A DNA stretch of 64,000 bases, from IMG/VR virus record IMGVR_UViG_3300032007_000001. The stretch is one strand, 5' to 3'. Numbering within the stretch: the first letter of the stretch is position 1; each line of letters opens with the position of its first letter. The notes under the pieces were generated by a model. That model did not search any database, was not told the DNA's origin, and saw nothing but the letters and a program-made list of their open reading frames with translations. This stretch comes from a virus. Its lineage: Duplodnaviria > Caudoviricetes. A program made the translations under genes and the position numbers. Shown piece by piece: positions 5,233 to 59,487 of this stretch.

Positions 5233-5306
5233 TGGAGCGAATGATGGGAATCGAACCCACGTAATCAGCTTGGAAGGCTGAAATTCTACCATTGAATTAC
5301 ATCCGC
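5233..5306 (-). tRNA. tRNA-Gly(TCC)
   Basis: TCAGC-CT TCC AA-GCTGA; TCCA end. Confidence 0.93.
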
Positions 5307-5478
5307 ATTATTTTTTATGAAATCAAATTTTACAAATTAAATAAAACAATAATTGCAATAAATATGACTGGAATAAATGCACGAGAACGCATTCTTATTG
5401 TTTGCATTTTGTTCTTTAATTGCATTGTTTCTTTCTTAAATTCTGTGTTTTTATAAGTTTTCATTATTTATCTTCCTT

Positions 5479-5889
5479 TCAATTAAGAATTTTTAGTGCT
5501 TTTTCAATATCTTCTTTTTGCAATCCTTTGTTAGAATCAGTAAGTACAAGATTCGTTTCTGTCAATTCATCCATATCCTTATCGTCATCAATGATTACAA
5601 AAGATTCAATATCTTTATCTTTCATCCAGTCTTTTATTTCTGAACCGCGAGTTCCAGGAAGACTTCTTGTAGCACCTATAACTTCAGTATTAATTAATTT
5701 CATTTTGTTTTCTACTAATTTTCTTAATGAAGGAATTCCTCGCCAAGAAGAAGACAAAACAATTTTTGCATTTGTCTTTTTCACTAATTCTCCTAAAAGG
5801 TCCAAGTGACTTTGTGTTTCAAGAGTTTGTGAAAATTTATCATTTATAGAATTTAATACTCCGTCTATATCCAAAAATATGACTTTCAT
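5479..5889 (-). CDS. HAD-family phosphatase, RNA-repair (Swiss Army Knife HAD_SAK_2)-like
   Basis: FLDIDGVLN, IVLSSSWR, RGSEIKDW, FVIIDDD motifs; inserted within tRNA cluster. Confidence 0.85.
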   Translation of the reverse strand: MKVIFLDIDGVLNSINDKFSQTLETQSHLDLLGELVKKTNAKIVLSSSWRGIPSLRKLVENKMKLINTEVIGATRSLPGTRGSEIKDWMKDKDIESFVIIDDDKDMDELTETNLVLTDSNKGLQKEDIEKALKILN

Positions 5890-5907
5890 ATCTTTTCCTT
5901 TCTTAAA

Positions 5908-5996
5908 TGGCGGAGTGGGTGGGATTTGAACCCACGCAGGATTTCTCCTCTAACGATTTAGCAAACCGTCCTCTTCAACCACTTGAGTACCACTCC
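5908..5996 (-). tRNA. tRNA-Ser(GCT)
   Basis: ACGGT-TT GCT AA-ATCGT; long variable arm; GCCA end. Confidence 0.92.
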
Positions 5997-6002
5997 ATGT
6001 TA

Positions 6003-6078
6003 TGGTGGAGACAAGGGGAATCGAACCCCTGACCTCTTGCTTGCAAGGCAAGTGCTCTCCCAGTTGAGCTATGTCCCC
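6003..6078 (-). tRNA. tRNA-Ala(TGC)
   Basis: GGGGACA acceptor with G3:U70; CTTGC-CT TGC AA-GCAAG. Confidence 0.95.
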
Positions 6079-6082
6079 ATTA

Positions 6083-6173
6083 TGGCGGATGGGGAGGGAT
6101 TCGAACCCCCGCGCGCTTTGCGACGCCTATCGGTTTTCAGGACCGAACTCTTCAGCCACTTGAGTACCCATCC
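6083..6173 (-). tRNA. tRNA-Ser(TGA)
   Basis: TCGGT-CC TGA AA-ACCGA (C33 instead of U33); long variable arm; GCCA end. Confidence 0.88.
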
Positions 6174-6178
6174 ATATA

Positions 6179-6255
<77 letters not shown>

Positions 6256-28815: not shown

Positions 28816-29179
28816 TGGTGGAGATGAGGAGAATCGAACTCCTGTCCGAAACAAGACTTCAAATGGGTCATTACCGCTGCTAGCTGGCTTATCGCACCAG
28901 TATACGTATAAAAGAAAGGGGGATTTGATGAAAATGGTTTTCTTAATTCTTAAGAAAAGTCCAAAGAAATAGTGGGAATTATCTGAAACCCAGTAGCGGC
29001 TTCTCCACAGTCTTACTGGGGGCTGGTAAAGCGTGGCAGACTTACGCCGGCATTACCTTACGCAGCGATGGCAACATAATCGTTGTCAGTTATTTTTTTG
29101 AAACGTTTTTTAGGATTCAGTTTCTTCATCCCGCGGAACCTCAAATGATTTCTCATCCCGTCGAAACCATTGCATCCCC
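28816..29179 (-). ncRNA. ssrA: tmRNA
   Basis: 5' GGGGATGCAATGGTTTCGACGGG; 3' GGAGTTCGATTCTCCTCATCTCCACCA; tag (A)DNDYVAIAA* after ATAACT. Confidence 0.95.
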
Positions 29180-30385: not shown

Positions 30386-30595
30386 TATTTCACTTCTTTC
30401 TTTTTTCAATTTATCTTATTCAAAGTGTACTTTTATTTTAATTTATGATAGAATAATCATGCTAAAAGAATTTTTCCAAGATTAATTGGATGGGATTAAT
30501 TTCTCATCCAATTTTTCTTTTTATAAAGGAAAAGAGATGAGTAGTGTGGGTTACTCATCTCTTTTCTATATATAGAGGAGGTATAGTGATGTCAA

Positions 30596-31068
30596 TGGTA
30601 CACATGAATGGAGTTGAACCATTGTCACTGGTTTATCGTACCACACATGGTTATGATTTCCCATGCCGTTTATTATGCCCATCCTTGGACGAAACGTTGT
30701 GGTCTGGAACATGTCTTCACCATATTTTTCAATTGCAATAATAAGCAAGCCTATCATTACACAAAAAACTTAGGTGGCTGGTATATGTTCTCTACACATT
30801 TACCAAAATCTTACTAAAATTGCAGATGTTATATATGCCATTAAAATACGTTGTAGTATCTTTTTGCATATCATCTATGGTGCAAATTAGTATTTGGATT
30901 TAGCACGGCATACCCTAACTCTCTGCCGATTTAGCCAGCATTCACTTAAACCGTTTCCAATCTAAGTGCTCCCGTTCTCACGGATAAGACATCGTAACCA
31001 TAGTAGGATTACTAGACTTATATTAGGAAATTTTAAGACCAGCGCACTCACCGTTGTGCTACATGTGC
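30596..31068 (-). tRNA. tRNA-Ile(TAT) interrupted by group I intron (exons 31068-31035 and 30636-30596)
   Basis: Joined exons fold: GCACATG/CATGTGT acceptor, GCAC/GTGC D-stem, CTGGT-CT TAT AA-ACCAG, AATGG-TTCAACT-CCATT, ACCA. Confidence 0.85.
30637..31034 (-). mobile_element. Group I self-splicing intron, 398 nt, no homing endonuclease
   Basis: Follows U, ends in G; P/Q GCTGGCTAAATCGGC...TGCCGTGCTAA; R TGTAGAGAACATATACCAGC; S GAAGACATGTTCCA; P7 GAACA/TGTTC; P3 GCTGG/CCAGC. Confidence 0.85.
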
Positions 31069-31450
31069 GTTACAAATTATAATAAACAGAAAAATGGTTT
31101 TTGTTTTTAATTTCTTGGATAAATACAAATACTTAAATAATTTTTAGTTTCTTCGACAGTCCATGTATTTGGAAATTTATTTTTTAAGATTTCGCTGTCA
31201 CTTTTGAAAACAATTGATTTAACATCATCATTGAATTTTAGCTTAAATCCTTGTATCTTAAAAAATTGGTCAAGGAATGTTTTAACTGGCATTATCGTTA
31301 TCATTAATGTTTTACCGTCCAATCCAAAAGATACGTTGCTACAAAATATGACATTACACAACACATAAAAACAGCCAATAAAAAGTAACAAAACATAAGT
31401 TTGCAATAACTTATAAATTCCTTATAAGAAAAATCATCAAAAAAATTCAT

Positions 31451-59162: not shown

Positions 59163-59239
59163 TGGTGGACCCTCACGGACTCGAACCGCGGACTACCTGT
59201 TTATGAGACAGGTGTTCTAACCAACTGAACTAAGGGTCC
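59163..59239 (-). tRNA. tRNA with CAT anticodon, probably Ile2 (lysidine) rather than Met
   Basis: CCTGT-CT CAT AA-ACAGG; GGACCCT acceptor resembles Firmicute tRNA-Ile2. Confidence 0.85.
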
Positions 59240-59283
59240 ATATTTATATATTATTTTTTATTAACAACAACTGCATATAAATT

Positions 59284-59400
59284 ATGCGGACAGGGATTTA
59301 CACCCTGTATGGTTGCTCTCTAACTGGGACCACAGTAACGAGTACGTCCGTACTTGTGACAACCGCCGGCACGCTGCGTCTACTTATTCCGCCACCGCAT
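59284..59400 (-). ncRNA. tRNA-Leu-like element with expanded anticodon region and no CCA
   Basis: ATGCGG/CCGCAT acceptor, GGCGGAATAAGTAGACGC D-arm, ACAGGG-TGTAAAT-CCCTGT T-arm, GGTTG/CAACC insert stem. Confidence 0.6.
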
Positions 59401-59411
59401 GAATTTTTTTA

Positions 59412-59487
59412 TGGAGTGAACGACGAAACTTGAATTAGTGACTCCTAACTTTGAAGGATAGTATTCTACCAACTGAGCTAAAGGCCC
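59412..59487 (-). pseudogene. Degenerate tRNA pseudogene
   Basis: TAGCTCAGTTGGTAGA D-region and TCCA end, but acceptor and T stems do not pair. Confidence 0.6.

Follow-up and report, generated by a model that had tools for sequence, protein, structure and literature searches.

A tRNA-Ile(UAU) gene of an AT-rich phage of about 504 kb appears to be interrupted within the anticodon, between U34 and A35. The interruption is an IC3-type group I intron of 398 nt that has no ORF and is predicted, with moderate confidence, to splice itself out. That the gene is a split tRNA and that its insert is a group I intron by nature can be considered secure. The junction that would yield the anticodon UAU is very likely the right one, judging from the rule of a U before the intron and a G at its end (U-1/omega G) and from the alignment of the intron family. 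Table 1 lists the features of the locus. Coordinates refer to the window, which is the whole 64-kb stretch of DNA that was analysed, and intron positions are counted from the 5' end of the intron.

Table 1. Features of the split tRNA gene, its intron and its flanks, with window coordinates and the basis of each assignment.
Feature	Position	Strand	Basis
tRNA-Ile(UAU) 5' exon, 34 nt	31035..31068	-	ARAGORN intron mode, direct reading
tRNA-Ile(UAU) 3' exon, 41 nt, CCA encoded	30596..30636	-	ARAGORN intron mode, direct reading
Group I intron of IC3 type, 398 nt, last base G398, no Pfam match in any ORF	30637..31034	-	covariance model matches, pair-by-pair helix check
Expanded L1 (intron 1-63): 12 single-stranded nt, hairpin I (13-51), hairpin II (52-63, GAGA loop)	30972..31034	-	RNAfold, pair check
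Internal duplicate of the ligated exon junction, GUCUUAU (intron 45-51)	30984..30990	-	RNAfold, pair check
Internal guide GAG (intron 64-66), pairs with C32 U33 U34 as P1	30969..30971	-	alignment, R2 start, Leu.3Ug seeds CUU/GAG of Williams 2020
P2, 11 bp, GAAA tetraloop	30943..30968	-	R2 match, pair check
P3 5' strand (30939-30935), J3/4 CUAAAU, P4 (30928-30924 / 30910-30906)	30906..30939	-	R1 match, alignment, motif search, pair check
P6: G131.U239, C132-G238; CCAAA/UUUGG; extension of about 85 nt	30796..30904	-	folding, pair check
R element: P7 5' strand G243 (A244 bulge) G245-A249, AUA, P3 3' strand CCAGC	30777..30792	-	R1, R2, pair check
P8 with both halves of an 11-nt GAAA-tetraloop receptor (CCUAAG / UAUGG) and an inserted hairpin	30718..30776	-	folding, pair check
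S element: J8/7 AAGAC(A) and P7 3' strand UGUUCC	30706..30717	-	R1, R2, pair check
P9 domain: ACCACA/UGUGGU stem, inner hairpins including AUGG-GAAA-UCAU, ACG to omega G	30637..30703	-	folding, pair check; layout as in Williams 2020 seeds
TATAAT box 7 nt ahead of the tRNA 5' end; no good -35 found	31076..31081	-	direct reading
14-bp hairpin, 31 nt past the encoded CCA	30530..30565	-	direct reading

ARAGORN, run in its intron mode, reports tRNA-Ile(tat) at 31068..30596 (-), interrupted between positions 34 and 35 by an intron of 398 nt. The 5' exon holds the acceptor 5' strand, the D arm and the anticodon-stem strand CUGGU, followed by C32, U33 and U34. The 3' exon resumes with A35, U36, A37 and A38 and continues through the ACCAG stem strand, a short variable loop, the T arm, the acceptor 3' strand, A73 and CCA. 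Joined, the two form a 75-nt cloverleaf in which ARAGORN keeps all pairs, with a 7-bp acceptor stem, a TTCAA T-loop, A73 and CCA, and a 7-nt anticodon loop, CUUAUAA, with U33 and a purine at 37. An earlier note on this DNA had described two tRNA halves 398 nt apart, and both the intron-mode call and the clean cloverleaf bear this out. It had also expected standard tRNA scans to miss the gene; neither default ARAGORN nor the Rfam tRNA model calls it, although a weak Rfam tRNA match lies over the 3' exon at 30599-30650. Intron mode itself also gave two spurious chimeric calls in the window, spanning neighbouring tRNA genes, and is therefore not trustworthy alone. These calls, labelled tRNA-SeC with intron (5233-6255 and 59163-59487), fuse parts of adjacent tRNA genes, and they are a warning for automated split-tRNA searches.

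All eight placements of the junction in the 7-nt loop were enumerated. CUU^A...G^AUAA (with ^ marking the splice sites) is the only one of the eight with a U before the intron and a G at the intron end, and the omega G, G398 at window position 30637, follows the P9 strand UGUGGU as the last base of ACG. The family alignment agrees with this placement, so the insertion after U34 and the split anticodon U^AU that the earlier note proposed are upheld. Shifting the insert by one base gives an identical mature tRNA sequence. Junctions that would produce UAA were rejected as a misfit with a tRNA having a short variable arm. Across the junction the spliced sequence resembles tRNA-Ile(gat) genes annotated in Streptomyces phages, a weak match of 77% identity over positions 5-61 (E 4e-3). 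It also carries A73 and C4-G69, which we take to be isoleucine identity elements as in E. coli. The database matches, though weak, support the predicted Ile(UAU) identity together with the junction rule.

The general Rfam group I model, RF00028, gave no match to the locus at its gathering score or at E <= 10 (1.1 kb searched), its threshold being a detection criterion and not a biological one. The core strings are visible by eye even so, and independent relatives were therefore sought from which to build models. R1 covers P3 to P7' and was made from six introns, five of them detected by Rfam itself (38-66 bits). R2 is full-length, has 42 base pairs and was made from seven tRNA introns of viral contigs, with the studied sequence left out. 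Each was searched over 128 kb (the 64-kb window); the E-values are rough ones from the tool. R1 has one match in the whole window, at 30946..30702 (-), over the full model length (38.9 bits, E 1.5e-6). The sole significant match of R2 is at 30971..30657 (-) and starts at the guide GAG (82.6 bits, E 2.4e-20), and the margin is large, the second-best match in the window being at 6.8 bits (E 2.3). The earlier note had called for a search with group I models, and the outcome is divided: RF00028 finds nothing, and R1 and R2 each find one significant match, in the insert.

Every pair in P2, P3, P4, P6, P7, P8 and P9 is Watson-Crick or G.U, and the same helices covary among the relatives. The core, made of P3, P4, P6, P7 and P8 with J3/4, J6/7 (R) and J8/7 (S), stands in the canonical order, and both tertiary partners are kept, the GAAA loop of P2 and its CCUAAG/UAUGG receptor in P8. 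With these helices checked and with the two model matches, the group I core that the earlier note saw between the tRNA halves is established. P7 reads GAACA/UGUUC, G243(A244)G245-A249 against U324-C329, with the bulged A and the G-C pair of the guanosine site in their standard places. The pairs of that site are G243-C329, G245-C328 and A246-U327, with A244 bulged, presumably the Tetrahymena layout. Sister introns have GAGCA/UGCUC, GGCCA/UGGUC and GACUA/UAGUC at the same columns, so GAACA/UGUUC is ordinary covariation; the compensated P7 of the earlier note is real. A Pfam search of the ORFs within and beside the intron gave no match, and no homing endonuclease domain was found there.

GAGCAC is invariant in eight of eight aligned introns, and GAG directly precedes P2 in all seven relatives. 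Here this guide pairs as U34.G64, U33-A65 and C32-G66, with the wobble at the splice site. The earlier note doubted activity on the ground that the obvious P1 pairing puts no U.G pair there. This is true of the adjacent stretch (intron 13-21), which puts A16 opposite U-1, but the U.G pair is not missing: the family guide GAG pairs with the exon CUU and gives U34.G64, so a canonical wobble pair exists. A guide at G56 (GAGAACGG) was rejected, since equally good sites occur in 66% of shuffles. L1 is 63 nt long here, compared to 6-19 nt in the relatives, and P1 must close over those 63 nt.

The first 49 nt of the intron seem to be an insertion that ends in a duplicate of the exon end. The copy, GUCUUAU, repeats the ligated junction exactly. 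It sits upstream of the guide GAG at 14 nt, a distance typical of L1 in the family. Perhaps it is a decoy or a relic 5' splice site, and unless masked it could compete with the true one. In the minimum-energy fold, hairpin I pairs it with intron 14-20. Intron 13-23 can also pair with the ligated junction at 10 of 11 positions, and 59 of 2000 shuffles were as good near the 5' end (p ~0.03). AUGUCUU (intron 43-49, window 30992-30986) perfectly complements AAGACAU (intron 319-325, window 30716-30710), which covers J8/7 and the start of P7'. These two segments are paired in the minimum-energy fold of the whole intron, an arrangement that would amount to a misfold in competition with the active core.

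The intron departs most from its family in P5. Where relatives have J4/5, P5 and J5/4, it has a 13-nt loop, GAGAGUUAGGGUA, between the P4 strands, in which no P5 helix is possible and the A-rich J4/5 is replaced by GAGA. R1 and R2 both skip the P5 region by a local end. A motif search for P4 covered 58 introns from viral contigs, over all of which the inter-strand segment has a median of 18 nt. Six entries of 15 nt are mis-hits in P2, leaving 52 comparison introns, in which the segment is at least 16 nt and reads AAA, a small P5 and CAA; the P5 of the family is only 2-5 bp. J4/5 is the docking site of the splice-site U.G pair in the Tetrahymena and Azoarcus structures, so the missing P5 and J4/5 bear directly on activity. 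The absent P5 lowers confidence in activity, not in descent. A kissing helix between UCCUAA in L1 and UUAGGG in the P4 loop was considered as a substitute P5 and is unsupported, because 32% of shuffles contain complementarity of that length.

A scan of IMG/VR for the canonical IC3 core found at least 116 loci (L031-L146), and 98 of the 117 core matches listed lie inside split tRNA calls. Among the matches listed, 72 of the split-tRNA labels are Leu(UAA) and the rest are Met(CAU), Arg(UCU), Thr, Glu, Ser, a UCA anticodon and others, some of the ARAGORN isotype labels being wrong because ARAGORN sets the intron position off by a few bases (1-3 nt). The 'Lys' and 'Phe' calls that were inspected (L036, L077, L108) read GGACUU^...^AAAAUCC, which is Leu(UAA). 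In one further case, L044 (7297-7577), the exons of a split tRNA-Leu(UAA) are 91-96% identical to the contiguous, intron-less tRNA-Leu genes of cultured cyanomyoviruses (S-TIM5, S-CAM4 and others), so an intron can be present or absent within one tRNA lineage. The statement in the earlier note that phage group I introns are typically in protein genes is outdated in view of these counts.

Seven close relatives were found among the matches listed (L092, L036, L051, L077, L128, L108 and L100, the first four being the nearest). They are introns of tRNA-Leu(UAA) and tRNA-Arg(UCU) genes on viral contigs, and they share with the studied intron the site after C32-U33-U34, the GAG directly before a GAAA-looped P2, the P9 layout and the blocks GUGAAU-P3-CUAAxUCGG, GUAGAGA and CCUAA. 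In the alignment of the eight introns from the guide onward GAGCAC, GAAA, GUGAAU, UCGG, GUAGAGA and CCUAA are invariant, and the nearest four relatives also share AAGACAU and GAAGACAU...UCCAGAC.ACAAC with the studied intron. In alignment A7 (columns 84/182) the first P6 pair is G.U in five introns and A.C in two, an isosteric exchange of the kind expected if wobble geometry, and not sequence, is conserved. Besides L1 and P5, the studied intron differs from the seven in its host tRNA, in P7, which is GACUA/UAGUC in theirs, and in length, with long insertions in P6, P8 and P9 that fold as hairpins (398 nt in total, compared to 192-274 nt).

The P7 variant itself was followed further. The pattern AGAGAACAT-N(40-70)-AAGACATGTTC finds three real introns in IMG/VR (L001, L002 and L004, Rfam 38-54 bits) and a fourth, chance match in a coding region. 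These three are the sole other sequences found with the exact P7 GAACAU/AUGUUC, and they share the identical strings GUGUAGAGAACAUA and GAAGACAUGUUCC with the studied intron; they lie outside tRNA genes, differ in P1, P2 and P9 and have a normal small P5. Their contigs also carry sister introns with other P7 pairs, and it is from this set that the six introns of R1 were taken. In L001 (2054-3235, three within 1.2 kb) and L002 (7906-8855) the group I introns are clustered, with a LAGLIDADG-like ORF upstream, and L004 also carries a CyVA-1 RNA (Rfam 54.6 bits). A search for the host gene of the L001 introns found none, and blastn of the L002 and L092 introns against GenBank phages gave no match.

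No orthologue of the split-tRNA locus was found in IMG/VR, GenBank phages or GTDB genomes, nor by way of the neighbouring gene. The locus has no blastn match in GenBank phages, the exact R and S strings are absent from IMG/VR, and the 19 matches of the P7-variant pattern in GTDB genomes are all chance, as the size of the database predicts. The neighbouring radical-SAM protein has relatives at 34-76% identity, all in ENA or Logan, with none in IMG/VR and none by tblastn in GenBank phages; the scan of a single metagenome gave two relatives of its gene (L007, L009) with no tRNA or intron beside them. With no orthologue to compare for conservation or covariation, the structure of the parts peculiar to this intron is the one predicted by folding.

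Bacterial tRNA genes are known to carry IC3 introns in about 21 tRNA settings (Williams 2020, bioRxiv 10.1101/2020.01.27.920355), which replaces the four that the earlier note gave as background. Among the 22 tRNA seed labels of that study, isoleucine is represented by Ile2 (CAU), and neither Ile(UAU) nor Ile(GAU) appears. In its seeds P1 is formed by the exon end and a short guide 0-4 nt before a GAAA-looped P2, the core reads GUAGAGACUA...AAGxxAUAGUCCAG, and P9 is ACCAC/GUGGU followed by 1-4 nt ending in G. The studied intron shares with bacterial introns of this type (cyanobacterial and plastid Leu.3Ug, Azoarcus tRNA-Ile(CAU) Ile2.5Ug) the location in the anticodon loop, the U-1 and omega G, the GUAGAGA...AAG..A...UCCAG core and the tetraloop receptor in P8. 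Its P1 is the CUU/GAG of the Leu.3Ug seeds, and its 3' layout, UCCAG-ACCACA...UGUGGU-ACG, is that of the bacterial seeds. Unlike here, all of those seeds have a P5, and they are found in cellular genomes.

Two giant phages have a tRNA split after CUU by an IC3 intron, as in this case. The cultured Agrobacterium phage Atu_ph07 (MF403008.1, 490 kb) has a tRNA-Leu(UAA) with a 278-nt intron at about 112890-113251 (-) (L147 583-944; R2 114 bits). In LR756501.1, an uncultured phage of 735 kb, the intron of the split tRNA is 205 nt long (L148 694-984; R2 143 bits). Unlike the studied gene, both are Leu(UAA) and have a normal P5. The split tRNA of Atu_ph07 is unannotated, its record having just a small 'hypothetical protein' (AUZ94936.1) over the 3' end, and the record of LR756501.1 is unannotated as well; LR756503.1 and LR756511.1 also match. 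A review by Hausner et al. (2014, PMC3984707) places all phage group I introns seen up to that time in protein-coding genes. Devoto et al. (2019, PMC6784885) described 'enigmatic' tRNA introns in Lak megaphages, introns in phage tRNAs being unreported before to those authors' knowledge; they tested the intron sequences against Rfam and named no class. Lak megaphages have half-megabase genomes of about 26% GC with many tRNAs, some of them interrupted, and the present phage resembles them in these traits, with no claim of kinship. Among the papers searched, none describes phage tRNA genes with group I introns.

The window has 27% G+C and holds 13 further tRNA genes and a tmRNA, along with genes for tail-fibre-like and other phage-family proteins. 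One of the neighbouring proteins is recorded from a 504,291-bp contig. The tmRNA (28816-29179 (-), Rfam 104.7 bits, tag peptide DNDYVAIAA) lies about 1.4 kb from the split tRNA. An alternative genetic code is unneeded, as the standard code 11 suffices. AUA makes up 40% of Ile codons and 38 per 1000 codons in the long ORFs of the window, so a tRNA with the anticodon UAU would be useful. A CAU tRNA at 59163-59239 (-) would add a second reader of AUA if it were an Ile2 of the lysidine type and not Met, two readings that blastn does not separate. The hairpin downstream of the split gene is a possible terminator of the tRNA transcript; a consensus scan calls neither the TATAAT box nor, on the minus strand, this hairpin.

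Could the group I and tRNA motifs have come together by chance in AT-rich intergenic DNA? ARAGORN's intron mode does give false calls in this window, yet a full-length covariance model match that is unique in the window, sequence blocks held invariant with seven independent introns (GAGCAC, GUGAAU, GUAGAGA and CCUAA among them) and a perfect cloverleaf make such a coincidence barely credible, and we count it as refuted already by the R1 and R2 matches. It is also very improbable that the exons are joined elsewhere, giving another anticodon such as GAU, or that proteins and not the ribozyme join the halves. The tRNA body is closest to tRNA-Ile(GAU) genes and a GAU loop, CUGAUAA, can be written, but the intron would then end in C397, against the terminal-G rule. 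The P9 3' strand followed by ACG is exactly the layout of the family, and the guide GAG complements CUU, not CU. As for proteins, their route is unnecessary because the ribozyme core is complete.

The question that carries more weight is whether the intron works. It may be real by descent and have lost splicing or splice very poorly, which would make the tRNA-Ile(UAU) effectively a pseudogene hitch-hiking in the phage. We consider this unlikely, though it has to be taken seriously: the P5 5' strand and the A-rich J4/5 are absent compared to all close relatives, the 49-nt 5' insertion ends in a duplicate of the exon end, the general Rfam model fails, and the insertions in P6, P8 and P9 are unusually large. 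Set against these points, both exons are intact with every cloverleaf pair present, as are P2, P3, P4, P6-P9, J8/7, the omega G and the guide GAG, the tetraloop and its receptor are kept, P5 is small in the family anyway, and the tRNA would serve a heavily used codon. A further reading, which seems quite improbable, is that splicing is gated. Intron 13-21 would pair either with the internal copy (45-51) or with the true junction, exposing the true or the decoy CUU, and the yield of AUA-reading tRNA would be switched by folding or by a factor. The ribozyme would then work without its P5/J4/5 receptor, and the 5' insertion with its masked splice-site copy would be a folding switch. The match of intron 13-23 to the junction and its pairing with the 7-nt copy in the minimum-energy fold are what suggest this, but both partners are perhaps a relic of duplication, there are no homologues to show conservation, the p value is modest, and the reading is purely inferential. 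Between these alternatives, self-splicing to give tRNA-Ile(UAU) is still the explanation we favour. The 49 extra 5' nucleotides, the lack of P5 and the large insertions in P6, P8 and P9 make it likely and not certain. The earlier note's verdict that activity is uncertain is kept, and its ground moves from P1 to the divergent P5/J4/5 and the 5' insertion.

Under the favoured self-splicing explanation, the precursor would be transcribed from just upstream of the tRNA. P1 would form between C32-U33-U34 and the guide G64-A65-G66, placing U34.G64 at the splice site, and free guanosine bound at the G245-C328 pair of P7 would attack after U34. G398 would then occupy the same P7 site, and ligation of the exons, held together by the CUGGU/ACCAG anticodon stem, would produce the loop CUUAUAA. 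The product would be a tRNA that reads AUA. As for the intron's origin, the most likely one is transfer out of a tRNA-Leu(UAA) gene or a similar gene offering the same CUU^A site.

Altogether, IC3 introns are common but unannotated in phage tRNA genes, and the tRNA-Ile(UAU) case is a real and moderately new one, extending the list of invaded tRNAs to Ile(UAU). Tying the group I introns of phage tRNAs together corrects the published picture (PMC3984707, PMC6784885). The usual tRNA finders are blind to intron-split genes, so the tRNA sets of large phages and the codon-usage arguments built on them are incomplete. Atu_ph07 is cultured, and splicing of that relative is directly testable. If the studied intron is active, it could inform work on ribozyme structure and function, as a natural variant whose P5/J4/5 is divergent and whose splice-site sequence is duplicated. 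If the improbable folding switch were true, splicing of the intron would control translation of an AUA-rich megaphage genome.
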